DNA from: Bdellovibrionota bacterium | GTDB taxonomy: Bacteria; Bdellovibrionota; UBA1018; CAUJDS01 | NCBI GenBank assembly: GCA_963169695.1 | Contig: CAUJDS010000011.1 | Span: forward strand, 57,001-121,000 | Direction of reading: 5' to 3' | Length of the DNA stretch: 64,000 bases | In this document: in pieces, positions 3,292-58,467 of the stretch | How positions within the stretch are numbered: position 1 is the first letter of the stretch | Layout of the letters: every line of letters begins with the position of its first letter | The notes under the pieces: generated by a model | Told to the model about the DNA's origin: nothing | The model's input: the letters and a program-made list of their open reading frames with translations, nothing else | The model's database searches: none | Position numbers and translations under genes: made by a program

Positions 3292-4597
3292 AATACGGCT
3301 GAAGGTCTACCGATATCCGCTCCTGCAGAAACGCTTGAAACATTTCTGTGCTAATCGACTGATACGCGTAAGTCTGCACAAACTCTCTCAAAACCGGAAT
3401 CAAACCATCCAGCGAAGTATGTTTCGCAAAGAGTCGATCCAATTTTGAAAAGAAGACCGATCCTACATCATAAGCATAAATCGATGTATCCCGCTTGTAC
3501 GGAGAGAACCCCGAAAGCTTCTCATGAAGTCCCTTGAGTGCTTCGTCCTTAGCCCTCGGATATCCATTGTCTCTCCAACGTGCCAATCCTTCATCAATCC
3601 AGCCAGAATTGCCGCTGCGGGGTCGCACGCCTCGCGCGTACCACGAATGAAACATTTCATGCGACAGTGCCCAAACCGAGCTATCGGTCGCACCACCATA
3701 TTCCATTCCGCCTCCAGCGGGTGTGACATGTCCCACAAATTTTTCAAAAAGATAGGGTCCAAAGTTGGATTCAATTTCTGCGAAATACCCTGGGGCGAGT
3801 TTTGCGGCGCTGCGAACCTCTCCTGCATCACGGCTATAAAACGTCAATGGTACCTCATGGCCCTCGCTGACTACTTTTACTGTTTCAAAGTTGTAGAATC
3901 GGGGATCCAGGAGGTGAAAGAAAAAACTCGACGACGAAAAAAACTCAGGAAACTGTATGACATACGCTAAGTCCGAAACTCTCGTGACTCGACCATTGGA
4001 TATCACTCGATGAGGAGTCTTGAGTCCTTCTATTTCGATGCGTAGCTCGAAGGGATAATCATCCCACTCCATATTAGATGGAAAATACCTTTCCATGTAG
4101 CCGCGGCCGAAGACATTGCCGTCCAAATTCCGGTCACTCATGCGATTCATAAAGTCTACATTTGAGGCGCCAAAGACTAAATTCGCACTTGCCTTCAAAG
4201 AATGAGTGATTCGTAACTGATGTTTTCCTTGGGCTGTCGGCTCAGGGAGCCTTCGAAACAGGGTAACTTTGTCTGGATCCGACACTTCAAGAACCTTGTT
4301 TCCTGGTGAGAAAGTACCGTCAATTTCATAGGTCAAAAGTGAAGGAACCAAATCAAATAGCGCATAGCCATCTTCCGCTTGATAGAAGTCGATTACAGTT
4401 TCTACAAAAGCCACTCGCTTAGAAAAATCAATCCTCAACCTAGAATGCGAACTCAAAATATCAATAAAGACCGACTTTTGACCGTCAATTGAGAAAGCCG
4501 GAGGTGCCTTTTTGAGATCTTCTTGCGCGTTGGCAATGGATCCCATCGCAAAGGCAAAACAAAGGACCGCCCAAATTTTTTTAATTCTTAGCCCCAT
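3263..4597 (-). CDS. Secreted zinc metallopeptidase, M1-family-like (HEXXH-W).
   Basis: N-terminal signal peptide (MGLRIKKIWAVLCFAFAMGSIANA). HEMFHSWYARGV zinc-binding motif resembling the M1 HEXXHXW signature. 444 aa. Confidence 0.6.
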   Translation of the reverse strand: MGLRIKKIWAVLCFAFAMGSIANAQEDLKKAPPAFSIDGQKSVFIDILSSHSRLRIDFSKRVAFVETVIDFYQAEDGYALFDLVPSLLTYEIDGTFSPGNKVLEVSDPDKVTLFRRLPEPTAQGKHQLRITHSLKASANLVFGASNVDFMNRMSDRNLDGNVFGRGYMERYFPSNMEWDDYPFELRIEIEGLKTPHRVISNGRVTRVSDLAYVIQFPEFFSSSSFFFHLLDPRFYNFETVKVVSEGHEVPLTFYSRDAGEVRSAAKLAPGYFAEIESNFGPYLFEKFVGHVTPAGGGMEYGGATDSSVWALSHEMFHSWYARGVRPRSGNSGWIDEGLARWRDNGYPRAKDEALKGLHEKLSGFSPYKRDTSIYAYDVGSVFFSKLDRLFAKHTSLDGLIPVLREFVQTYAYQSISTEMFQAFLQERISVDLQPYFDFYIYAKK

Positions 4598-4623
4598 GAA
4601 TCCCCCCTAGAAAGCTTCGTGAA

Positions 4624-5670
4624 CTATGGTTTCACCAAACTCTTTCTTTCGTTATCACGACCCATGCAGAGCAAGAAGGGGTTTTCACATTGACGCGCTT
4701 GGAACTCCGACTTTGAACGCAATCCTAACCAACGCTCTTGGACAAGGACTTGACCAATGGATCCGCCCAACGTTCCACCGGGTCCTAAGAGGACCAGATG
4801 ATCGGGCGCAAATTCCTTCAAACCAACCACCAGCGATTTTGTAAAATCATATGGCTCAAGGACTTGCGTTCGCAGCGTATAGCCCCTCAACGCTTCGGGA
4901 TCGGTGCTTTCTGGATACCAAATCGCACCCCTTCCATCGATGATTGGCATCGTTGGCGACTGAAATAAATCCGAAGGCAGTGCAGACAAACCTCTTTCAG
5001 AAACACTCTCCAATAGTGGTGTATGAAACGCAGCATGATGAAGCAATCGCATAGGATAGCGAGAATCTTTTTTGGGGAGTGCTTCAGCAATCGCCTTGAG
5101 ACCTGCTTCATTTCCCGCAAGTACCAGCATTCCACCCAAACGAATGGATAAAAAGAGTTCTGCCCCTGGCGTTGCTCGAACCGTCTCCATCTTTTGCATA
5201 ACACTTGCTTCTTCTTCTTTATTGCAAGTCCAATCGTCGTTGCAAACGGGATAAACGATTTGTCCTCCGATGATGCCATCCTTCATCATGGAACCCATGG
5301 TGTTCACCACCGATATCCCTGCATCTCCTTGCAAAGCCCCGGAGGCCGCCAAGGTAAGGTACCACCCCATGGAATTGCCCAAGACAGCAACCACTTCGTA
5401 TCGCTCGGAATCTAATTCAAAAAAATCCACCATTGAGCATGCATAAATCAAAGCGGACGCATTTTCTCCGGGAGTATGAAGCGCAGACTGAAATGAAGAA
5501 GCACTATCAAGGTCTTGGACTTTCGGCTGACCCTGTTGGGTGCGATACGCATCTACCGAACTCAAAAATGCCTGATACTTCTGCGCGTATTTTTTGAGGT
5601 AGCCCAATTCTTCTCGATTATAGGATCCTCGTCCGGGACAAATCACGACGATTTTTTTTCTTTGGCTCAC
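4624..5670 (-). CDS. Acyltransferase-domain protein, FabD (malonyl-CoA:ACP transacylase)-like fold.
   Basis: VVICPGRGSY... aligns with the FabD FVFPGQGSQ. VLGNSMGWYLTLAASG aligns with the GHSLGE nucleophile elbow (H->N). LLHHAAFHTP aligns with the FabD His201 region. Confidence 0.55.
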   Translation of the reverse strand: MSQRKKIVVICPGRGSYNREELGYLKKYAQKYQAFLSSVDAYRTQQGQPKVQDLDSASSFQSALHTPGENASALIYACSMVDFFELDSERYEVVAVLGNSMGWYLTLAASGALQGDAGISVVNTMGSMMKDGIIGGQIVYPVCNDDWTCNKEEEASVMQKMETVRATPGAELFLSIRLGGMLVLAGNEAGLKAIAEALPKKDSRYPMRLLHHAAFHTPLLESVSERGLSALPSDLFQSPTMPIIDGRGAIWYPESTDPEALRGYTLRTQVLEPYDFTKSLVVGLKEFAPDHLVLLGPGGTLGGSIGQVLVQERWLGLRSKSEFQARQCENPFLLCMGRDNERKSLVKP

Positions 5671-42243: not shown

Positions 42244-42300
42244 CCCAAAAAGGTGCCAAAAAACGTGTCTCACACGTTTATTGGCACCTATTGAGGAACC
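42244..42300. repeat. Intergenic repeat family, copy 1 (ccaaaaaggtgcc + hairpin + ggcacctattg).
   Basis: Shares the ccaaaaagg, AAACGTGT/ACACGTTT palindrome and ggcacctattg motifs with copies at 43.5 and 44.2 kb. Confidence 0.55.
42256..42283. terminator. Bidirectional rho-independent terminator hairpin between convergent genes.
   Basis: aaaAAACGTGT-ctc-ACACGTTTatt. An 8-bp perfect stem flanked by A and T runs, between the msbA-like stop (42243) and the lipoprotein gene stop (42288). Confidence 0.6.
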
Positions 42301-42884
42301 TCTAGAACTTCATAACTGTAATAACTGCCGTCAAGCGCGCGGTCTTCGAATCCAATCCAAACCTTCTCGCTACTTTCCGCAAGTATTTCAAATTGGTAAC
42401 TCCACCCTGCATCACCACTCAACTGGAATAGGTTGCGAGCTATTCTCTCCCACTTCAGGTCCAAATCCTTGGCATAAACTGGAACTTTCTTAGGAAGGCG
42501 CGGCCCCAAGGAAGAAGTGAAAGCTGCGAAGTCCAGATTTTGAGGTTCAAATCTTGGACTTCCGATAGCCTCATTCAATGCAAGCCCTTGCAGGGCTCCA
42601 AACTCAGCAATTGCACAAACCCGATAGTTCTTAAACTTGTGGAAGCTGGCGGTCGTCTCAGGCAGGGACTGAGCTCGATAAGCCTTTAGCCAGCTCTCGC
42701 AATTGTTGATACCCTTCTTGATCAATGTGCGTTTTATCTTCAGCACCTTTGCGGACTGTGCATCGGCAAGTAAGGCTTTGTCAAAGACTCGAATAGAATC
42801 TTGCTGAGATGTCTGCTGAGCACTCGAACAAGCGGTTGATAGTGCCAACGCAAATAGAAGGACTGCAAAACTACTTCTTCTCAT
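42288..42884 (-). CDS. Lipoprotein of unknown function, co-transcribed with the upstream lysozyme-like gene.
   Basis: Signal peptide and lipobox (ALALSTAC). 198 aa. Start overlaps the upstream gene's 3' end by 14 nt. Confidence 0.5.
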   Translation of the reverse strand: MRRSSFAVLLFALALSTACSSAQQTSQQDSIRVFDKALLADAQSAKVLKIKRTLIKKGINNCESWLKAYRAQSLPETTASFHKFKNYRVCAIAEFGALQGLALNEAIGSPRFEPQNLDFAAFTSSLGPRLPKKVPVYAKDLDLKWERIARNLFQLSGDAGWSYQFEILAESSEKVWIGFEDRALDGSYYSYEVLEVPQ

Positions 42885-43449
42885 TGAAACCCTTCATACC
42901 GGTTAGAAGATCGGCTTCTTTTCTCCTTCTGGTAGGATAGCGATCGCCAAAATTTCTTAGTTCGCTTTCAACCTTTGCCCATTCGTTCTTCTTTACGTGA
43001 TTCCAAAGATTCGGCGCTCGGCGTTCAAGGTTTGGTCCATATTGATAGGAAACAGAAAGAATTACTGTCTGTGCTTCCTGCTCCAGCTCATCAAAACTCT
43101 TGGAGTCTTTCGCATCCCTCGTTCTGTTATATACTTGCCTTATGCGTTCGAGATGCCGCACTTGAATCGCCCGGTCCAGATCTCCGGCCTCAACTGCACT
43201 CAGGACCAGGGGCTTCTTCTTTATAAAATCCACAGCCTTGGACCCTTTTAATCCTAAGTAAGGAGTCAATTTAGTGCGAGTAACATCTTTAATGGATAAA
43301 CTCTTGAGGTCTTCGGCACTCAACTGCCCCAAATCCACCCCAGTTGCTGCAGTTACACCACTTCCACTGGCACTCGAATCTGGTACGTAACCCTTGAGCA
43401 CTCGAGCACCTTCTAACGATTCAATAAACCGAAAATCTGGTCTAGCCAT
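42871..43449 (-). CDS. GH24 (phage T4-type) lysozyme-like protein.
   Basis: N-terminal FIESLEGARVLKGYVPD...SGVTAATGVDLG matches the catalytic Glu/Asp region of GH24 lysozymes (EGxRLxAYxD). C-terminal ...ILSVSYQYGPNL...W..V......W.......RR..E..LL matches the GH24 C-lobe pattern. No signal peptide. Confidence 0.55.
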   Translation of the reverse strand: MARPDFRFIESLEGARVLKGYVPDSSASGSGVTAATGVDLGQLSAEDLKSLSIKDVTRTKLTPYLGLKGSKAVDFIKKKPLVLSAVEAGDLDRAIQVRHLERIRQVYNRTRDAKDSKSFDELEQEAQTVILSVSYQYGPNLERRAPNLWNHVKKNEWAKVESELRNFGDRYPTRRRKEADLLTGMKGFNEKK

Positions 43450-43500: not shown

Positions 43501-43545
43501 CTATGACGCGCCTCGGGCCAAAAAGGTGACGGGCACCTTTTAAAA
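43501..43545. repeat. Intergenic repeat family, copy 2 (tgacgcgcctcgggccaaaaagg + hairpin).
   Basis: The 23-mer tgacgcgcctcgggccaaaaagg (43504-43526) is identical to 44172-44194. It is followed by the hairpin AAAAGGTG-acggg-CACCTTTT. It lies in the divergent region between the lysozyme-like gene and the 43557 lipoprotein gene. Confidence 0.55.
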
Positions 43546-43556
43546 AGGTCTTCAAT

Positions 43557-44162
43557 ATGCTAATGCCCGGCAATATGAAAATATTACTCAGAATGCTCCT
43601 TTTATCCCTTCTGCCGGCCGCCTGTGCCACTCCCCGTTTTGATGCACGAATAGAGCCCAATCAGGGTGACTCTGCTCAAATCAATGCGGCAATCGATGGT
43701 GTAACAGAAGAGCAGGAGAACGAAATCAAAGTCCATATGGGAAGCTTGCCAGCTGGAGTTCGAATCAATGGGGAAACGGTCGAACTCAGCAGTTCCTCAC
43801 CTCTAAAATATTTAGGACCAGTTCATACGACAGGTGGAAGTGGAGTTTTTCAATGGTCCTTCAACGATGACCGTACCGAGTGGTGCAGCGTTAGTAACGT
43901 TCTTACCATCGCTACAGGCTTCCTCTGGTCAATTTTGCCAATGCACTATCCTTGTTGGCCGTCTTACACATCAGACAGCCTCGAATCTGTCGAAATGAGG
44001 AAAACACACCTCCTTCGCGCGCTTAAGCGTGCGACCGTTGCAGCCGGAGGAAGTATTTTAGTCGTAAGATCGTTCGGACGAGTCGAAATCTTCAATGGCT
44101 TGACCGGCCATCACCTCGATTCAACCGAAATGGTCAATGCGCAAGGCTGGGCTTTCAAATAG
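43557..44162 (+). CDS. Lipoprotein of unknown function (201 aa).
   Basis: Signal peptide and lipobox (LLSLLPAAC). Confidence 0.45.
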   Translation: MLMPGNMKILLRMLLLSLLPAACATPRFDARIEPNQGDSAQINAAIDGVTEEQENEIKVHMGSLPAGVRINGETVELSSSSPLKYLGPVHTTGGSGVFQWSFNDDRTEWCSVSNVLTIATGFLWSILPMHYPCWPSYTSDSLESVEMRKTHLLRALKRATVAAGGSILVVRSFGRVEIFNGLTGHHLDSTEMVNAQGWAFK

Positions 44163-44169
44163 CGGAACA

Positions 44170-44270
44170 ACTGACGCGCCTCGGGCCAAAAAGGAAAAAA
44201 CGTGTGAGACACGTTTTCTGGCACCTATTGGCACGTTTTCTGGCACCTATTGGCAGCACCTATTGGCACC
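44170..44270. repeat. Intergenic repeat family, copy 3: 23-mer, inverted hairpin and tandem 21/22-bp direct repeats.
   Basis: tgacgcgcctcgggccaaaaagg (44172-44194). The hairpin AAACGTGT-gag-ACACGTTT (44198-44216) is the exact reverse complement of the 42.26-kb hairpin. cgttttctggcacctattggca occurs twice in tandem, followed by a third partial gcacctattggcacc. Confidence 0.6.
44195..44220. terminator. Bidirectional rho-independent terminator hairpin between convergent genes.
   Basis: aaaaAAACGTGT-gag-ACACGTTTtct between the 43557..44162 (+) gene and the 44272..47349 (-) gene. Confidence 0.55.
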
Positions 44271-44271
44271 T

Positions 44272-47200
44272 TTATTCCGCTTTGGAAGAAGTGCTGCGGT
44301 AGCGGGCGGCGGCTTCTTTGAGTTCGTCTTTTTTTGCAATGAGGCTACTGGAAATGGATTCGCAACTCGCATCTCCATCATCCATTTTTGATTCACCGGT
44401 TGTCTTCTTCTCAGCGGTCTTATCTCTATTGGCCCGCAAGTCTCGCAAGTCAGCATTCTTTTCTTCTTTTTCTTTTTCTATACGGTCTATTTCATCTTGG
44501 AGATTCTTGCCATTGGCTGAATCAAACGCCGCTTTTCTAAAATCATATTCTCTTTGATCTCTTCTTGCAGCATCCTCCGCTGCGGTCACTTTCGATCGAA
44601 GCTCGTTGTATTCAGCATTCAGTTGGTTTAATACACTTTCAGCTCGAGTCTTATCACTCTGTAATCTTGGCACTTTCTCTGGGTTTTTCTTATCGCCTTC
44701 GGTTGCCTCATAAAAAGCTTTGTCGGCATTTTTTAAAGCCTCATTTGCCACAAACCAGCCACTGCTATCACCAGATTTTTTAAAATTATTTAACCGAGCT
44801 GAAAGCACCTCCAACTCGGACTTCGAGGTCAACCACGTTTTTTCAATTGCTTGAAAATTGGTCTCTTTAGTACCGTAGCTCGCATCATTCTTCGACTTGA
44901 GCGCCGCCAGGTCGGACTTCAACTTTCGAATTTCCTCTTCAGCATCTTTCACTTTCTTCTCAGAACTTGCAATGGAAGCCAGGTCCCTAGCATTACTAGT
45001 CCCAGTCACTTTGCTCACGCCAGATCTCAGGATATCTGCGATATCCCGTGGCAGGTCATTGATCACAAGCTCCATATTCGACGTAAATTCTTTGAGTCGG
45101 TCGGTACCACCAAATTTATCTTCCATCCATGCGCAGGATTCCTTGAACTTGATACCAAGGGCTTCAAGTTCCTTGGCTTTGTCCTTCAAGCGATCCAAAG
45201 AACATTCGGACTTCAGCTCTTCGATTTCTTGAGAGACTTTGGCGATCTTCTGATTCTCTTTTTCTAATTCGGCTGCCTTCTCAGTGACCTTAGACAACTC
45301 ACCATTGAGGTCGCTCGAACCAAAATCAATCAACGGAGTACCTTGCATTTGTCCCGCAATAAGCCCCATAACATTCGTGCTTTTGCCCGGAATAGTAATC
45401 GGTTCGCCACTTGCTGTTTTTCCGACAACCTCTTGTGGTGCCTCAACCGGCGAAATGTACTTAAACCGAAAACCACCCGAAACTCTCAAGTCTTTTCCCG
45501 ATAGGTATTTGGATATCTTATCCAGCTGAGTCTTGATACTAGCAGCGTCTCCCGCAGGCCCACTGAGTGCCTGGCCAATAGTTTTGAGCTTGGTCGTGTA
45601 GCGTTCTTCCGCCAATCTCGCTGCCTCTTGCTGATTGCTTCGTACTTCGTTCACCGTGCGAATAAAATTGGTCGTCTGCTGCTGAAGGTTGCTAATAAAC
45701 CCTTCGATTCCTGCTCCGGGAATGGTCAAATTCTTTACGTAAGTGCCACCCTTGAAAGTCATGCTCGTAACCGAGACCTGGGGGTCGTCGCCGCGAACCA
45801 GAGAGCCCAATGTTTTTTTGAGGTCATTCAGGCAATTTTCTTCTGCATAGCCCAATGAGCTATCACACTGTTTGGTAGGAATGGCCACGTGGCCAGCACC
45901 TAGGACGCGCGCCACATTTTGAATATCAGCGGTATACTGCCCCAACATGGTCTGCGCAATTTGTTTGGAGGTTCGGCGAGTTTCTTCAATCTCTCGCTTC
46001 TTGTTGGCCAATGGGGTGCCTTCTTGTTTGGTACGACTGTTCACCGTCTTAAAGGCTGCGCTATAACAACCGCTCACTGCTGCATTGAGGAATCCTAGCA
46101 GATTGATTCCCGGCGTACTGATTCCAGAAAAGCGCTTGTTCAAGGTGGCAATCAATTCTTCCTTGGACATGATATTGAACGTCTGCCCGCCATAAGCTTC
46201 GGCAGCCTGAGGATTGGTAGCCGCACCTTTGGTCTTTGGCACATCCCCAAAAAGGCGTGCTAGCTGACTCTTCACCAAATTAGCGGTACTTGCGGCAGAT
46301 TTTTTATTAGCTGTACGGGTCTTGGCCTGGCCATCCTCGCCACGAAGGGATTCTTGCTCAATGCGTTCCAACAAAGCTTGCTCTCGACTACAAGAAACCG
46401 TTTGGCCAAGTTGCTCGCCTTTTCCAAGACACTTCATATTTGGGTCTGGTGTCTCTCGGAAGCAACGCTCAGTCTCTTCCATAATGGAGACGGACCATTG
46501 TTGATTGTATTCGGTGACTTTCTTTCTGAGATCCGACATAGCACGACTAACAACGGCTGAATCATTTTCGAGGCGGACGTTGAAATCTCCCTGGCCACGG
46601 GCCAACTTTTCTTTGAGTTGAAGGAGTCCGTCCTGTCCAACGGCTGGATTACCCGAAAGCTTAAGTTGAACTTCTTGTTGCTGCTGACCCAATTCTTCGA
46701 GCGCCTGACGATAGCCTTTTTGTACACGAAGGTTTTCGTCTACTTCCGATTGAAGGGGCGAGGCCAAAGAAGACGCGAATTGCTGAAAACTGCTGCCCTT
46801 TTCTACCAGACAAGCTACTTCCTGTTGCACGTAGTTGGCTTTGTTGATCTTACAAATATTGGCTTCTATTGCTGCCGCGTTATCTTGAATCAAACTACTC
46901 GTGGCCTTGAGACTAAAAACTCCCGTCTTATCTTTTACTGAAGAGGAGCTACAAGAAGGCGCAGATAGCACGGGGGTCACTTCCGGACAGTCGACTTCTA
47001 GCCCCATCGCGTTCTGCGCGCTACCGACGAAGGCTGAGTTAGAAATCTTCTTTGCTTTGGTATCTGTATAGCCAAGGTCCTCGTCTTCCGTAGCCTTTGG
47101 CGCTGCTTTGCTTTGCCTTGCTACTTGAATCACTTTACCTGTCAGACATTGATAGGGAAGCGACGGAGATGCTAGCCCGGTCAAATTGACATTGGACGAT

Positions 47201-47349
47201 GAGAAGTTGGTGGAAGGTCCCCAGGCAGCCGGCAAGTTTACCGAGGGCGCATTCACTGCAGCTGCATGGGCAAAAAGCACAACTCCTAAACCCGTAGGAA
47301 TAAGAAATCCAATGACCATTGCAAAATGAGGACGAAACAAACCCCGCAA
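44272..47349 (-). CDS. Large secreted coiled-coil protein (1025 aa), unknown function.
   Basis: N-terminal signal/TM (VIGFLIPTGLGVVLFAHAAAV). Long K/E/Q-rich predicted coiled-coil segments. Multiple Cys pairs. No recognisable catalytic domain. GC lower than its surroundings. Confidence 0.6.
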   Translation of the reverse strand: MRGLFRPHFAMVIGFLIPTGLGVVLFAHAAAVNAPSVNLPAAWGPSTNFSSSNVNLTGLASPSLPYQCLTGKVIQVARQSKAAPKATEDEDLGYTDTKAKKISNSAFVGSAQNAMGLEVDCPEVTPVLSAPSCSSSSVKDKTGVFSLKATSSLIQDNAAAIEANICKINKANYVQQEVACLVEKGSSFQQFASSLASPLQSEVDENLRVQKGYRQALEELGQQQQEVQLKLSGNPAVGQDGLLQLKEKLARGQGDFNVRLENDSAVVSRAMSDLRKKVTEYNQQWSVSIMEETERCFRETPDPNMKCLGKGEQLGQTVSCSREQALLERIEQESLRGEDGQAKTRTANKKSAASTANLVKSQLARLFGDVPKTKGAATNPQAAEAYGGQTFNIMSKEELIATLNKRFSGISTPGINLLGFLNAAVSGCYSAAFKTVNSRTKQEGTPLANKKREIEETRRTSKQIAQTMLGQYTADIQNVARVLGAGHVAIPTKQCDSSLGYAEENCLNDLKKTLGSLVRGDDPQVSVTSMTFKGGTYVKNLTIPGAGIEGFISNLQQQTTNFIRTVNEVRSNQQEAARLAEERYTTKLKTIGQALSGPAGDAASIKTQLDKISKYLSGKDLRVSGGFRFKYISPVEAPQEVVGKTASGEPITIPGKSTNVMGLIAGQMQGTPLIDFGSSDLNGELSKVTEKAAELEKENQKIAKVSQEIEELKSECSLDRLKDKAKELEALGIKFKESCAWMEDKFGGTDRLKEFTSNMELVINDLPRDIADILRSGVSKVTGTSNARDLASIASSEKKVKDAEEEIRKLKSDLAALKSKNDASYGTKETNFQAIEKTWLTSKSELEVLSARLNNFKKSGDSSGWFVANEALKNADKAFYEATEGDKKNPEKVPRLQSDKTRAESVLNQLNAEYNELRSKVTAAEDAARRDQREYDFRKAAFDSANGKNLQDEIDRIEKEKEEKNADLRDLRANRDKTAEKKTTGESKMDDGDASCESISSSLIAKKDELKEAAARYRSTSSKAE

Positions 47350-47598: not shown

Positions 47599-49262
47599 CC
47601 AGCAAGGCGGGTTTGATTCTTGGAAGTGGGTAATGGATGACAGGAAGGGGAGCAGCGAGGGAGGCAAAATTGAAAGAGTATTTTCAGTAAGGACCCGTGA
47701 ATACTCGTTTCATTGACTCCCTTTCTGCGCGCGAAATGGAAAGGAATTTTTCATCATCCTATTTGTAATTCAGAATTTTTCTCAAATTTTCTGTCATTTT
47801 TGCTTGACCGAGTTTTTTTATAAAAGGGTATTCTTCATTCAGTAAATCCAAGCAATGCGTAATGTCCTATTGCACGCGCATAATGCCTCAGTAGAGCATC
47901 GTTCGCTTAGCAATCCTCCGGGCTCATTTGAATGCTTGTATCGAGTCTCCTATAGAAGACTAAGGACTAAATATTCGACCAAAAATTCCGTGATAAGTAG
48001 TTTCGAAGAAAAAGAAACGGAGAAATGCAATGCTGCAAAATGAATCCACTCAAGCGTCAAAGATTAAAAATATTAGCACAGAACAATCGCCTTCTAGCCT
48101 CAAGGGATTGTCGGATTCTCAGTTGCAGCTTCGAATCCGAGAGCTTGCCAAAGCGGAACAGAGACTGACTTTACAAGTGCTGCTTCACCTCAAAGAAATC
48201 TCCGATCGCAAGCTCCATGCAAAGCTTGGATATGCTTCCTTATGGGAATATGCGGTGAAAGAACTAGGCTATTGCGAGGCTTCCGCTTCCTCTCGTATTG
48301 CGGCGATGCGACTGATGGTGAGTGTTCCAGAAGCTAGGACTCAGATCGAAAACGGGAAACTCACACTTTCTCAGGCAGCAAGGATTCAGCAGTTTATTCG
48401 CAAGGAGAATCAAGTTTCTTCTCAGCCCATTACGAAAAGCGAAACCAAAGCAATCATCCAGGCCTCCGTAGGTACTTCCATCCGAGAGACCCAGAGGATG
48501 CTCGAAGCCAAAGCCCAAGAACGAAGACCCAGCCTGATTGCAGAAAAGCCGAATCAACCTACTATCTCCTTCCAAGCCGATGAAGAAACCATGCAAATGC
48601 TAGAAAGGCTCCGAGAGCTGCGTGGAAACTTGGGAGCCTTGGAGTTATTTAAGCTAAGCCTGAGAACCACTTTAGACAAACTCGATCCACTCCGAAAGAA
48701 GCAGAAGGTAATAGGAAATAGCAAACCAGATCCATCCCTTTTTGCGCAGAAACCCGAGGATGATTGCCTCGTTTTTGATAGGAATTTATGCCCAACTTCT
48801 CCGAAGCCTTCACGCTTTATTCCGCAATGGATTCGGATCGAAGTGGCTAAGCGTAGCAAAGGCCAGTGCGAGTACCATAGTCCTTTAAACGGCAAGCGAT
48901 GCGAGAGTCGGTACCGCGTTCAATACGACCACATTGTGCCGATTGCTCGTGGGGGAGTAGGAACGCTAGCTAACATTCAGCACCTTTGCGGACTGCACAA
49001 TCGTACAAAGGGGGTGCAGATGGAGGCTGCGTACTTCGGGGTAGGACATGCAGTTGCGCCACCAGAAAGAAGAAGCTAATTTTGGTACTTATAGTGAGTA
49101 CGCGCGCGCGAAGAAGGGAAATGTTTTGATTGGCTAACAGGCAACTGTAAAATGCATGAATGTTTTGCAATTTTGAACCTACTTTTTGCACCCCCTCACC
49201 CTTGCTGTTCTCCATCCTGTCATCCATTGCTAACTTCCAAGAATCAAACCCGCCTTGCTGGA
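47599..49262. mobile_element. TIR-bounded cassette carrying an HNH endonuclease gene (putative small mobile element).
   Basis: Left repeat 47599-47655 (ccagcaaggcgggtttgattcttggaagtgggtaatggatgacaggaaggggagcagc). The right repeat 49201-49262 is its imperfect reverse complement. The first 29 bp are identical and overall identity is about 85% over about 60 bp. The pseudo-ORFs 47513..47716 (+) and 48970..49269 (-) encode the same QQGGFDSWK.MDDR peptide because of this symmetry. Confidence 0.6.
48030..49079 (+). CDS. HNH endonuclease domain protein (C-terminal HNH, N-terminal ~250 aa uncharacterised).
   Basis: C-terminal CEYHSPLNGKRCESRYRVQYDHIVPIARGGVGTLANIQHLCGLHNR is an HNH motif (CxxH..C...DHIxP...GG...N...LC..HN). 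Confidence 0.8.
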   Translation: MLQNESTQASKIKNISTEQSPSSLKGLSDSQLQLRIRELAKAEQRLTLQVLLHLKEISDRKLHAKLGYASLWEYAVKELGYCEASASSRIAAMRLMVSVPEARTQIENGKLTLSQAARIQQFIRKENQVSSQPITKSETKAIIQASVGTSIRETQRMLEAKAQERRPSLIAEKPNQPTISFQADEETMQMLERLRELRGNLGALELFKLSLRTTLDKLDPLRKKQKVIGNSKPDPSLFAQKPEDDCLVFDRNLCPTSPKPSRFIPQWIRIEVAKRSKGQCEYHSPLNGKRCESRYRVQYDHIVPIARGGVGTLANIQHLCGLHNRTKGVQMEAAYFGVGHAVAPPERRS

Positions 49263-49465: not shown

Positions 49466-49936
49466 ATGAAACGACGCTATTGGATCCTAAAGAACGAAGT
49501 GACGGACTACTCCATCGATGAAATGAAAAAAGACGGACAGACCGATTGGACGGGAGTCCGCAACTACCAGGCTCGTAATTTTATGATGAAGGACATGAAA
49601 GCTGGAGACTGGGCCTACTTCTACCACAGCAATGCTGAGCCTCCGGGATGCGCCGGCATTATAGAGATCTCTCGCGAAGCAAAGCCCGACCTCACGGCAC
49701 TAGACCCCAAGAGCAAATACTTCGAAAAGCGGGCCACCAAGGAAAACCCTGTATGGCATTGTGTTCAAGTAAAGTTCAAACGAAAGCTGAAGCGTCTCGT
49801 ACCCCTCAGCGAACTTCGAGAAAACCCAAAGCTCAAAGACCTCTTACTTCTCCAACGAGGAAGTCGACTTTCGATCACGCCCGTCAGCCAAGAAGCATTT
49901 GAAGAAATAGAAAGAATGTCCAAAGAGATCCGATAG
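49466..49936 (+). CDS. EVE domain protein (PUA-like, DUF55).
   Basis: 156 aa. MKRRYWILKNEVTDYSIDE...WTGVRNYQARNFMMKDMKAGDWAYFYHS...GCAGIIEISREAKPD... matches the EVE/thymocyte-nuclear-protein-1-like fold signature. Confidence 0.8.
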   Translation: MKRRYWILKNEVTDYSIDEMKKDGQTDWTGVRNYQARNFMMKDMKAGDWAYFYHSNAEPPGCAGIIEISREAKPDLTALDPKSKYFEKRATKENPVWHCVQVKFKRKLKRLVPLSELRENPKLKDLLLLQRGSRLSITPVSQEAFEEIERMSKEIR

Positions 49937-56469: not shown

Positions 56470-58467
56470 TTGACAGTGGGGGATCAGGCTATCTTAAAAA
56501 AACTTATGACACTAGGGATACTCCTGCTTGGCCTTGATGGAATGGCCTGGGCACAGGATTATCGGACCGTCCGAAAAGAATTAGAGGCGGCATTCTCACA
56601 ATTGGCTGACGCGGGTGATTCGAAGGAAGTCGAGGCCTCCCAGGGGCGTATCCAAACTTGGATCAGTGAGTGGGAAAAGCATCCCACCGAGATGGGCGAT
56701 CAGGCCTTGCTCTTGATCGGCAGAAAATACCTCTCCTCTGAAAAAGATCCGGAAATTCAGCGTAGTGCCGCCTCCCTTCTTCTTAGCACCTTGAAGCGCC
56801 ATCCTTGGGCGAGAAATGACCTTCTGGCTTTTGCCGAAACTGAGATTCCATCCAAACCCTTTCTCGGCCAACTCCTAAAGGCAGACCTGCCCAATGCTGA
56901 AATGCTCGAACGTTCGCTACAGATTCTCCTTCGCCGTCCTGACTACGCGGTGGATCTCGCGATGGCACTCTTTGACAATAATGGTCGTACGTGGAAGTCT
57001 GTCTTTCTGGAACGGCGCGATCTCCTCGCCCGAGTCCTGGACACTCGCAACCTTGAACGCGCATTTGAGAACTGGATCTCTCTGCACTCTTTGATTCATA
57101 GTGAAATTTCGAAGGAAGAGCTTTTCAATACGCCAGCGTTCTTTAATGCCTGGCTTCGCGAAGGCCGAGCCATTCCAGAACTGCGAAGTAGAGCTGAGAC
57201 TTTAGTCAACAGTGCGAGCCTTGAAGACCTGCCTGCCCTTGCCAAAGATCCCAGGACCTACGTTTCTCAGCTAGCCATTCCTAGGCTCCTCTCGCTCCAT
57301 TTAACTGAGGCCATACAAAGAGATCTACCTAATGGACTTGTTCAAGATCTTTTTTGGCGATGGAATGAAGTTGAAGAAGATTCAGACTTTTCTTCCATAC
57401 CTGGAACTTTTTTCATCCTTGGACGATTGTCAACTCAGAGTGATATCGCCGCAATCACAAAGAAAGGGTGGAATCAAGGCTGCGCTACTCCCTTCGTTCG
57501 AAATTTCTTCCGCTTTCTCGGTAGAACGGACGCCTCGAAGCCATTACCCGAAGTGACCCATCAGTGGATCCTTCGTCAAATGAAAAACTGCCCTTGTCCG
57601 AAGATCCACCCTTTGCTCGACTCCTACTTTGCTTATACCTCTCCCGACGAGCCCACCCAAAGTGGGCTTGCAAAGCAAATCGCAGCCATCATAGAAAGCC
57701 GAACTGCATTATCCGAAGATAATCCTCTCGCTTTGGACTTAGAATGGTCCCTTCCTATCAATATTCTGCTGGGCGCCGCCGGCTCCACCAACTGTGAGAA
57801 AATACTTCTTTGCTCTACTTGCTCTATCAATGCAAGATTGTTGGCGCTCTTTCACTACGGAAAATACCATCTCATCGAACCCTATTTTGACGAATTTGAA
57901 AGACTCTTCCACGCCCTCATCGAAGAGAAAAAGGGAAACGATACAGACTGGATTTACAAGACAAAGGATTTTTTTGAAGTGCTCAGCGAATCGCCTAGCG
58001 AACGGCGCCGAATGGAAGAGGTGCTACTTCATGAACTTCAAACCCAGGACGAAAAAGGAATCTACTGGCTCCTTATATCACTTTCATCGTCGCCGCTCTA
58101 TTCTAGCGATTTAATAAATCAGTTACTACGACTGATTCAGCCTATTGGCGGGCCCGTTCCTATTTGGTTGGTTCTCAATACCGTACGCAACCTACTGGAG
58201 AGACCTGATAAATTTGATGAAGCGACTTTTTACGCTGCATTTGATCAAATCCACAACGTCGTCGTGGCTACCAAAGAACTTCACTTCGTCAAACAAGAAC
58301 GGTACTGGGCGTTGATTATGAGCCGAGCTACCGAAGAAAAAGTTGTGGCCTACCTTGGCAATACTTCTGGTTGGAAACCCAAGGAAATGGAACGTTTTGT
58401 AAGAGCAACGCTCTACGTCCTAAAAAAACTCAACCTCGAGCCACCACCTGCTTTGCTTCAATACTAA
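56470..58467 (+). CDS. Secreted hypothetical protein (665 aa), helical-repeat-like.
   Basis: Signal peptide (MTLGILLLGLDGMAWAQ). The probable start is the internal M at about 56506. No known domain. Confidence 0.45.
   Translation: MTVGDQAILKKLMTLGILLLGLDGMAWAQDYRTVRKELEAAFSQLADAGDSKEVEASQGRIQTWISEWEKHPTEMGDQALLLIGRKYLSSEKDPEIQRSAASLLLSTLKRHPWARNDLLAFAETEIPSKPFLGQLLKADLPNAEMLERSLQILLRRPDYAVDLAMALFDNNGRTWKSVFLERRDLLARVLDTRNLERAFENWISLHSLIHSEISKEELFNTPAFFNAWLREGRAIPELRSRAETLVNSASLEDLPALAKDPRTYVSQLAIPRLLSLHLTEAIQRDLPNGLVQDLFWRWNEVEEDSDFSSIPGTFFILGRLSTQSDIAAITKKGWNQGCATPFVRNFFRFLGRTDASKPLPEVTHQWILRQMKNCPCPKIHPLLDSYFAYTSPDEPTQSGLAKQIAAIIESRTALSEDNPLALDLEWSLPINILLGAAGSTNCEKILLCSTCSINARLLALFHYGKYHLIEPYFDEFERLFHALIEEKKGNDTDWIYKTKDFFEVLSESPSERRRMEEVLLHELQTQDEKGIYWLLISLSSSPLYSSDLINQLLRLIQPIGGPVPIWLVLNTVRNLLERPDKFDEATFYAAFDQIHNVVVATKELHFVKQERYWALIMSRATEEKVVAYLGNTSGWKPKEMERFVRATLYVLKKLNLEPPPALLQY

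Follow-up and report, generated by a model that had tools for sequence, protein, structure and literature searches.

The 64,000-nt stretch of DNA analyzed here (hereafter, the window; positions 57,001–121,000 of contig CAUJDS010000011.1 in GenBank assembly GCA_963169695.1) comes from a Bdellovibrionota metagenome-assembled genome (MAG) and contains two adjacent genes on its minus strand. One encodes a predicted stand-alone muramidase of the pesticin C-terminal type, with 192 amino acids (aa) and a mass of ~21.7 kDa (pos. 42871–43449, minus strand, ATG start), assigned from the open reading frame (ORF), Pfam family PF16754, pesticin matches in the PDB and the predicted fold. The other encodes a 198-aa lipoprotein (pos. 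42288–42884, minus strand, ATG start), a putative cognate immunity protein, assigned from the ORF, a hidden Markov model (HMM) of the partner family described below and a search seeded by the pesticin immunity protein Pim. The ORF coordinates place the muramidase stop and the lipoprotein start in a 14-nt overlap (pos. 42871–42884, minus strand), confirming the two-gene pair reported by an earlier reading made from the letters of the DNA (the sequence-only reading), and a Shine-Dalgarno–like GAAGGG lies 5 nt ahead of the lipoprotein ATG. The overlap is consistent with translational coupling of the two genes; in homologous modules it is mostly 4 nt (ATGA), compared with 14 nt in the window. A sigma-70 scan of 42.1–44.4 kb revealed no promoter-like sites. 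The GC content of the pair (~0.47) and that of the flanks (~0.50) differ too little to serve as an argument for transfer.

Comparison of the 192-aa protein with PF16754 (Pesticin C-terminal muramidase) gave an E-value of 3.5e-42 and a score of 144.4 bits, above the curated cut-off of 25.8 bits, and the match covered the whole domain (protein residues 5–157 on profile positions 3–155 of 156). In PDB sequence searches, pesticin chains were the one clear match (E 2e-17 when the search used the single sequence, 5e-32 when it used the family profile), and T4 lysozyme was marginal. The AlphaFold (AF2) model, built on a 26-sequence alignment, reached a predicted local distance difference test score (pLDDT) of 92.2 and a predicted template-modeling score (pTM) of 0.83. 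The sequence-only reading had likened the protein to T4 lysozyme and proposed structure prediction and superposition on that enzyme; Foldseek aligned the model with pesticin (4aqn/4arq) at a template-modeling score (TM) of 0.83 and a root-mean-square deviation of 2.2 Å over 185 columns (E 3e-11), whereas T4 lysozymes reached a TM of just ~0.5. No relative above 52% identity was found.

The key residues of the muramidase, taken from a family alignment (A1) and the PDB alignment, are E13, G14, Y21, P23, T33, G37, D39, Q136, W149, R174 and R175. E13, G14, Y21, P23, T33, G37, D39, Q136 and W149 are invariant or nearly so in A1, and T33, D39, Q136, R174 and R175 align directly with pesticin T201, D207, Q301, R339 and R340, respectively; E13 and P23 were matched to pesticin E178 and P187 by spacing. 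All seven of these pesticin residues are reported to be essential or conserved, and the E178A, T201A and D207A variants are inactive (PMC3390615). The residues that the Vibrio fluvialis protein TssI2 needs for killing (E844, G845, Y851, T863, G867, D869, Q963, W975 and R1000; PMC9620997) likewise have conserved counterparts in the muramidase, matched by spacing. These alignments retain one part of the catalytic motif that had been read as ESLEG...GYVPD and replace the other: the conserved Glu is indeed E13, in the LEG of ESLEG, but D24 of GYVPD sits in a variable column, and the conserved Asp, along with T33, is D39 in GVDLG, the two being mapped to pesticin D207 and T201. The N-terminus is not hydrophobic, the highest Kyte-Doolittle 19-residue mean in the protein being 0.57, which bears out the earlier statement that the enzyme has no signal peptide; without an export signal, the muramidase would be made in the cytoplasm, where peptidoglycan is absent. 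Together, the profile match, the model and the residue alignments show the 192-aa protein to be a predicted stand-alone pesticin-type muramidase with the full set of catalytic and substrate-binding residues.

The 198-aa protein begins with a signal peptide and lipobox (pos. 42828–42884, minus strand; MRRSSFAVLLFALALSTA followed by C19, with Ser at +2), recognized from a PROSITE-type lipobox (LSTAC, residues 15–19) and an N-terminal hydropathy peak. The sequence-only reading was therefore right to call the second gene a lipoprotein gene, with LSTA/C19 as the lipobox. No later membrane segment was found after residue 25 (maximum Kyte-Doolittle mean 1.27), and the lipoprotein is predicted to be periplasmic. 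By itself it gave no Pfam (E ≤ 1) or NCBIfam match, and neither it nor its family profile matched anything in Pfam, NCBIfam, PHROGs, PADLOC or PDB sequence searches. A word-indexed search of 5.8 billion proteins returned the lipoprotein itself alone, and phmmer against 1.84 billion representatives returned a single weak relative (P0243, E 1.4e-4), which scores 123 bits with the partner-family HMM and adjoins a pesticin-like gene fragment. That HMM, built from 41 partner proteins of other genomes, matched the whole length of the window lipoprotein (57.5 bits, E 7e-20); only a profile made from proteins encoded beside muramidase homologues thus revealed the family membership. This match places the lipoprotein, as a divergent member, in a partner family of ~215 aa that lacks annotation. 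Conserved across the family are two cysteines (residues C62 and C90 of the window lipoprotein, both in the N-terminal domain), an LDLRSFxSSL motif and a DE..GNY motif.

Analysis of the C-terminal half of this family revealed a relationship to Pim. Two short partners were used as sources: the annotated pesticin immunity gene of a Salmonella pst plasmid (L088:2991–3416), and a 129-aa gene of Aliivibrio plasmid pVSAL840 (L090:4531–4920) that follows a gene for a LysM/PG-binding/pesticin-domain protein. The partner HMM matched both of their products, in each case through its C-terminal half. Iterative searches seeded by Pim alone or by the Aliivibrio partner alone converged on the same 61 of 8873 ORFs; the window lipoprotein is among them at about E 1e-15 (2e-15 with the Pim-alone HMM), and every other ORF listed from the Pim-seeded search lay at or beside a pesticin-like gene. 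For a non-circular comparison, Pim and five short partners were aligned with the window protein left out (alignment A4), and hhalign matched the window lipoprotein to this alignment with a probability of 95.6% (E 1.2e-8, 77 columns), pairing residues 111–190 with Pim 27–109. From hhalign and the HMM domain coordinates, the putative Pim-like immunity domain spans approximately residues 111–196 (pos. 42297–42554, minus strand) and holds NLDFAAFTSSLGPRL, W161, D181 and Y188. Pim itself resides in the periplasm, and its target is the activity domain of pesticin (PMC3390615). These profile links indicate that the lipoprotein, previously listed as of unknown function, has two domains and is related to the pesticin immunity protein.

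To compare the pair with its homologues, we used 80 genome loci encoding relatives of the muramidase and 80 viral loci from IMG/VR. Directly downstream of the muramidase homologue, most genome loci encode a protein of ~210–225 aa that is either secreted or a lipoprotein, and a Pim-like partner stands beside the muramidase gene in 55 of the 80 genome loci versus 3 of the 80 viral loci (Fisher p 3e-19). This shows that the muramidase and partner families are strongly linked and that the link is not phage-specific; the module is widespread in non-predatory bacteria. In a Hydrogenophilales MAG (L025), Pfam matches place the pair between tssB-tssC-hcp and a PAAR gene, and in Paracidovorax avenae (L026) they place Hcp upstream of it; nine loci of Comamonadaceae have hcp next to the pair, and a further betaproteobacterial locus (L048) has a PAAR gene close to it. 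Placement beside hcp or in type VI secretion system (T6SS) clusters, seen in Comamonadaceae and at two other loci of betaproteobacteria, suggests that the family is delivered by the type VI route on Hcp.

Long upstream ORFs were considered as VgrG candidates and rejected, since they gave no match in L026, aldehyde dehydrogenase/MaoC in L032 and Pirin in L064. The Aliivibrio pVSAL840 protein was likewise rejected as a VgrG-pesticin fusion: its Pfam matches are LysM, PG_binding_1 and Pesticin, without VgrG, and its 129-aa partner is therefore not called TsiI2, the immunity protein of TssI2. Variants of the arrangement were also observed. In several Sphingomonadales and other loci (L085/L086:8683–10142, also L037, L043 and L062), one or two DUF2589 genes lie downstream of the stand-alone pesticin-like gene in place of the Pim-like partner and may be an alternative partner family. 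In two Salinisphaera loci (L016:7500–7973 and L027:7467–7973), a short (157–168 aa) secreted Pim-like partner is encoded directly upstream of the muramidase gene.

On sequence grounds, the window pair is a very divergent member of the class formed by pesticin-type muramidases and Pim-type immunity proteins, and it is likely to be a toxin–immunity module of the pesticin/Pim type, consisting of a muramidase toxin and its cognate periplasmic immunity lipoprotein. The sequence-only reading had named, among three models for the pair, an effector that hydrolyzes peptidoglycan and is accompanied by a periplasmic immunity lipoprotein; this model is supported by the Pim-homologous C-domain and by the occurrence of the same module next to hcp or in T6SS clusters elsewhere. 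Under this interpretation, the two genes would be co-translated, C62 and C90 would pair as a disulfide, and the lipoprotein would bind the muramidase 1:1 in the periplasm and block it, thereby protecting the producer and its kin. A contact-dependent machine, which would be the T6SS where hcp is linked, would pass the muramidase to other cells, and the delivered enzyme would cut the bonds between N-acetylmuramic acid and N-acetylglucosamine in the recipients' peptidoglycan.

Several observations weigh against this assignment. Phmmer searches with Hcp, TssB, TssC and PAAR as seeds found no match in the window, no T6SS family occurs among the 25 of the window's 41 Pfam families that were listed, and to our knowledge Bdellovibrionota is not a phylum known to have a T6SS. 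In the genome sample, T6SS genes lie within 8 kb of 11 of the 55 partner-bearing loci, in a few betaproteobacterial lineages; the remaining partner-bearing loci are isolated pairs amid unrelated genes. The sequence-closest genome-encoded muramidases, from two alphaproteobacterial MAGs (L093:6001–6564 and L094:6001–6555, one of them Rhodospirillaceae, the other unclassified; ~50% identity), are encoded by solitary genes with no Pim-like gene nearby; their surroundings are housekeeping or KaiB/KaiC-like genes. In five loci (L006, L008, L010, L021 and L035), muramidase and partner are fused in one ORF of 404–446 aa, the 404-aa ORF of L006 being cut by a contig end, and such a fusion is hard to square with a freely secreted effector. 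The Pfam Pim model PF16765 misses the window lipoprotein; it recognizes Salmonella Pim (1.6e-51), whereas neither the 129-aa partner from Aliivibrio nor the ~215-aa family is detected, so the curated model is narrow and picks up close Pim relatives only. Finally, the monomer model of the lipoprotein, built on a two-sequence alignment, is too poor for use (pLDDT 43.5). As to the fused ORFs themselves, which come from Pyrinomonadaceae, Acidobacteriota and "Actinomycetota" MAGs (e.g., L008:625–1881 and L010:7986–9257), the internal hydrophobic segment that joins the two parts still ends in a lipobox (FGISC, AGVAC or SVGC), and they may represent a conserved gene fusion cleaved by signal peptidase II.

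In the window, the pair lies isolated among housekeeping genes, with no linkage to hcp, tssB, tssC or PAAR genes within the 64 kb. One flank consists of a gene for an MsbA-like ABC transporter and dapF/purF/purC, and the other of a gene for a 201-aa lipoprotein and a 1025-aa gene without domains; in the rest of the window, metabolic and transport families stand among the 25 of 41 Pfam families listed, and PADLOC gave no matches. The earlier statement that neither phage structural genes nor T6SS genes are nearby accordingly holds as far as tested, with housekeeping neighbours and four T6SS seeds unmatched in 64 kb. Among the PurF matches listed, the named ones are almost all from Bacteriovoracia, Bdellovibrionia or Bdellovibrionota MAGs at 60–65% identity, with the closest match of the list at 70%; on this basis the host falls in Bdellovibrionota. 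The contig of the closest relative (L091) ends 265 nt past dapF, short of the island junction. The literature yielded nothing usable on a T6SS in Bdellovibrionota, nor on a stand-alone pesticin-like effector in Acidovorax. With regard to delivery in this host, a T6SS encoded elsewhere in the genome is a possibility that we hold tentatively. It is unlikely that the toxin is no longer delivered and that the pair is kept mainly for immunity, and a shade less likely that delivery follows another route or serves a predation-linked use.

The sequence-only reading had also offered a phage-derived endolysin with a spanin-like lipoprotein. In such a lysis cassette, which would be the relic of a decayed prophage, the endolysin would be cytoplasmic and the lipoprotein would sit in the outer membrane. 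Stand-alone pesticin-like proteins with 42–44% identity are encoded by endolysin-type genes in Vibrio, Pelagibacter and Pseudoalteromonas phages, and those of Vibrio phages Athena1 and VBM1 and of Pelagibacter phages resemble the window enzyme in their stand-alone architecture and length as well; pesticin-like genes occur in 455 IMG/VR stretches, PHROG 24780 matches the muramidase at E 1e-46, and the muramidase is signal-less, as are canonical endolysins. The phage copies differ, however, in their surroundings, because they lie in lysis or early regions next to genes for small membrane proteins and have no Pim-like partner; in Athena1, the one phage copy examined at this level, small membrane proteins follow the enzyme gene. 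The window pair, in turn, has no holin gene, small membrane-protein gene or phage gene beside it, and its 198-aa lipoprotein lacks a C-terminal membrane segment and is homologous to Pim, not to spanins. Together with the partner frequencies (3/80 viral versus 55/80 genome loci), this makes a lysis cassette highly improbable, and that model of the sequence-only reading was dropped. The only three contigs with the pair among the 80 viral loci (L096, L099 and L100, at ~3986–5223) are near-identical; in L096 the pair adjoins a ParB-DNA methylase gene and a DUF1441 gene, and on these contigs it looks like prophage cargo rather than a lysis cassette.

Two further explanations keep the enzyme and its inhibitor and change the target. 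The first, which was the third model of the sequence-only reading, is a module specific to predation, analogous to the endopeptidase and self-protection pair Bd3459/Bd3460 of Bdellovibrio bacteriovorus (see below): the predator would deliver the muramidase to its prey by a non-T6SS route to open or dismantle the prey wall, and the lipoprotein would protect the predator's own sacculus. In its favour are the assignment of the host to Bdellovibrionota and the lack of matches to all four T6SS seeds in the window. The logic of a toxin with a periplasmic protector equals that of the toxin–immunity module, so that predation-specific use would be a special case of it. We nevertheless judge it improbable: the known secreted wall hydrolases of Bdellovibrio are Sec-dependent, whereas the muramidase lacks a signal peptide; non-predatory Proteobacteria commonly carry the module, and a fused version is present in Acidobacteriota-type MAGs; and with no relative above 52% identity found there is no sign that the pair is conserved among predators. 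A more specific version is a little more doubtful still: a predatory member of Bdellovibrionota that has no T6SS would have recruited a pesticin-like effector of the T6SS type together with its Pim-like immunity lipoprotein, the one to attack prey walls and the other to protect itself, and would export the enzyme by a route that is novel for signal-less proteins in these predators. Alternatively, the muramidase could act on the producer's own peptidoglycan, in autolysis, programmed lysis or release of cell contents, as an endogenous wall enzyme with a dedicated inhibitor and without any transfer between cells. The isolation of the pair among housekeeping genes, the many homologous pairs without secretion genes within 8 kb and the existence of fused ORFs would all fit this explanation, but without a signal peptide or a holin the muramidase could not reach its own sacculus, every characterized relative of the two proteins is an inter-bacterial toxin or its immunity protein, and hcp is linked to the pair in several lineages; we consider it decidedly unlikely.

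Compared with known systems, the toxin–immunity module proposed here is most directly related to pesticin (Pst) and Pim, encoded on Yersinia pestis pPCP1 and related small plasmids. The two systems share the PF16754 domain (TM 0.83 to 4aqn) with its E/T/D/Q residues, as well as adjacent genes and a partner exported to the periplasm, the C-domain of the window partner being homologous to Pim. Pesticin differs in having 357 aa, with domains for binding the FyuA receptor and for TonB-dependent translocation, whereas the window enzyme is a bare activity domain and therefore could not enter cells by itself. Pim is a soluble protein of 141 aa encoded convergently to pst, whereas the window partner is a 198-aa lipoprotein with an extra two-cysteine N-domain, encoded by a co-directional, overlapping gene. 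Among T6SS pairs, TssI2-TsiI2 of V. fluvialis and VgrG3cp-TsiV3cp of Vibrio cholerae E1 have a periplasmic immunity protein that binds the pesticin domain (PMC9620997, PMC9927483). They resemble the window pair in having a pesticin-type muramidase that acts in the periplasm and an immunity gene directly downstream with a Sec-exported product, and differ in that the toxin is a C-terminal extension of a VgrG spike in T6SS clusters, while that of the window is a free 21.7-kDa protein. TsiI2 has 127 aa and is not described as a lipoprotein; TsiI2 and TsiV3cp were compared with the window lipoprotein by description only.

Small signal-less enzymes with a periplasm-directed immunity protein are also known from the Pseudomonas pairs Tse1-Tsi1, Tse3/Tge1-Tsi3 and Tge2-Tgi2, which are often encoded away from the T6SS cluster. 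The window family resembles such Hcp-associated pairs of the Tse1/Tse3/Tge2 type in both components and, in Comamonadaceae, in the position of the pair directly after hcp, but no sequence relation to these effectors was detectable, the muramidase family profile finding pesticin and weak T4-lysozyme matches in the PDB. Bdellovibrio bacteriovorus encodes Bd3459, a Sec-secreted DD-endopeptidase, and its ankyrin self-protection protein Bd3460. This pair comes from the host phylum and likewise combines a wall hydrolase with an adjacent protector of the producer's wall, but both of its components are unrelated to those of the window, where the lipoprotein has no ankyrin or other Pfam match and the enzyme is signal-less.

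If the proposed assignment is correct, a hypothetical "orphan" lipoprotein would gain a function. Better supported than the takeover by a predator considered above is a candidate family: the ~215-aa two-domain partner, with a two-cysteine N-domain and a Pim-like C-domain, would be an immunity family, so far without annotation, found alongside most stand-alone pesticin-like muramidases of non-phage origin in several phyla. This would define a large immunity family that has no Pfam, NCBIfam or PDB entry, and the presence of its members would let annotators tell an antibacterial pesticin-like toxin from a phage endolysin with the same fold. The copies linked to hcp in Acidovorax and Paracidovorax would nominate a candidate family of small T6SS cargo effectors, and the window pair would raise the question of whether its Bdellovibrionota lineage has a contractile injection system or another use for the toxin. 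None of these points overturns current understanding.

Analysis of the spacers around the pair revealed three intergenic copies of a repeat, with no further copies in the 64 kb. R1 (pos. 42248–42292), found by an inverted-repeat search and folding, is an inverted repeat with 21-nt arms between the convergent ABC-transporter gene and the pair. Its fold has ~17 paired bases in the core stem, with energies of −27.7 and −29.5 kcal/mol on the two strands (z −8.1 and −5.7, respectively), and because UUUUU follows it on the minus strand, R1 is probably the intrinsic terminator of the pair. R2 (pos. 43504–43550) lies upstream of the muramidase gene, in the spacer between divergent genes, and contains the exact 23-mer TGACGCGCCTCGGGCCAAAAAGG; as a hairpin it was not significant (fold z −0.9 and −0.2). 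R3 (pos. 44172–44273) consists of the 23-mer of R2, an R1-like hairpin and repeated CTGGCACCTATTGG units. The two exact copies of the 23-mer (pos. 43504–43526 in R2 and 44172–44194 in R3) flank the gene for the 201-aa lipoprotein, and a 22-nt unit, CACGTTTTCTGGCACCTATTGG, is tandemly duplicated at 44210–44253, just after the second copy.

The sequence-only reading had described the pair as delimited on both sides by copies of one local repeat family. Copies do occur at 42.25 kb (R1) and 43.5 kb (R2), but these two share just ~11 nt (CCAAAAAGGTG); the real relative of R1 lies outside the coordinates given in that reading, at 44195–44229 in R3, with 86% identity over a 36-nt direct alignment and 91% complementarity over 35-nt arms, and the gene for the 201-aa lipoprotein is bracketed as well. 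The repeats thus enclose a segment of ~2 kb with three genes, in which no mobility gene is present. A terminator-like site within R3 (pos. 44219–44195) serves the 1025-aa gene, and the flanking repeats are mainly terminator-like hairpins; they may record a local duplication or insertion history of the 42.25–44.27 kb segment.

The ORF of the 201-aa lipoprotein (pos. 43557–44162, plus strand; lipobox LPAA/C) lies between R2 and R3 and is transcribed divergently from the muramidase gene. This protein has no detectable relatives or domains in Pfam, NCBIfam, PHROG or PADLOC, and the partner and Pim HMMs miss it; it is listed here for the shared repeat bracket, not as a member of the module. The adjacent 1025-aa protein (gene at 44272–47349, minus strand) has no Pfam match and by eye is rich in Lys, Glu and Ala, and is probably coiled-coil. 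Next come a gene that matches HNH weakly (pos. 48030–49079, plus strand) and an EVE-domain gene (pos. 49466–49936, plus strand).

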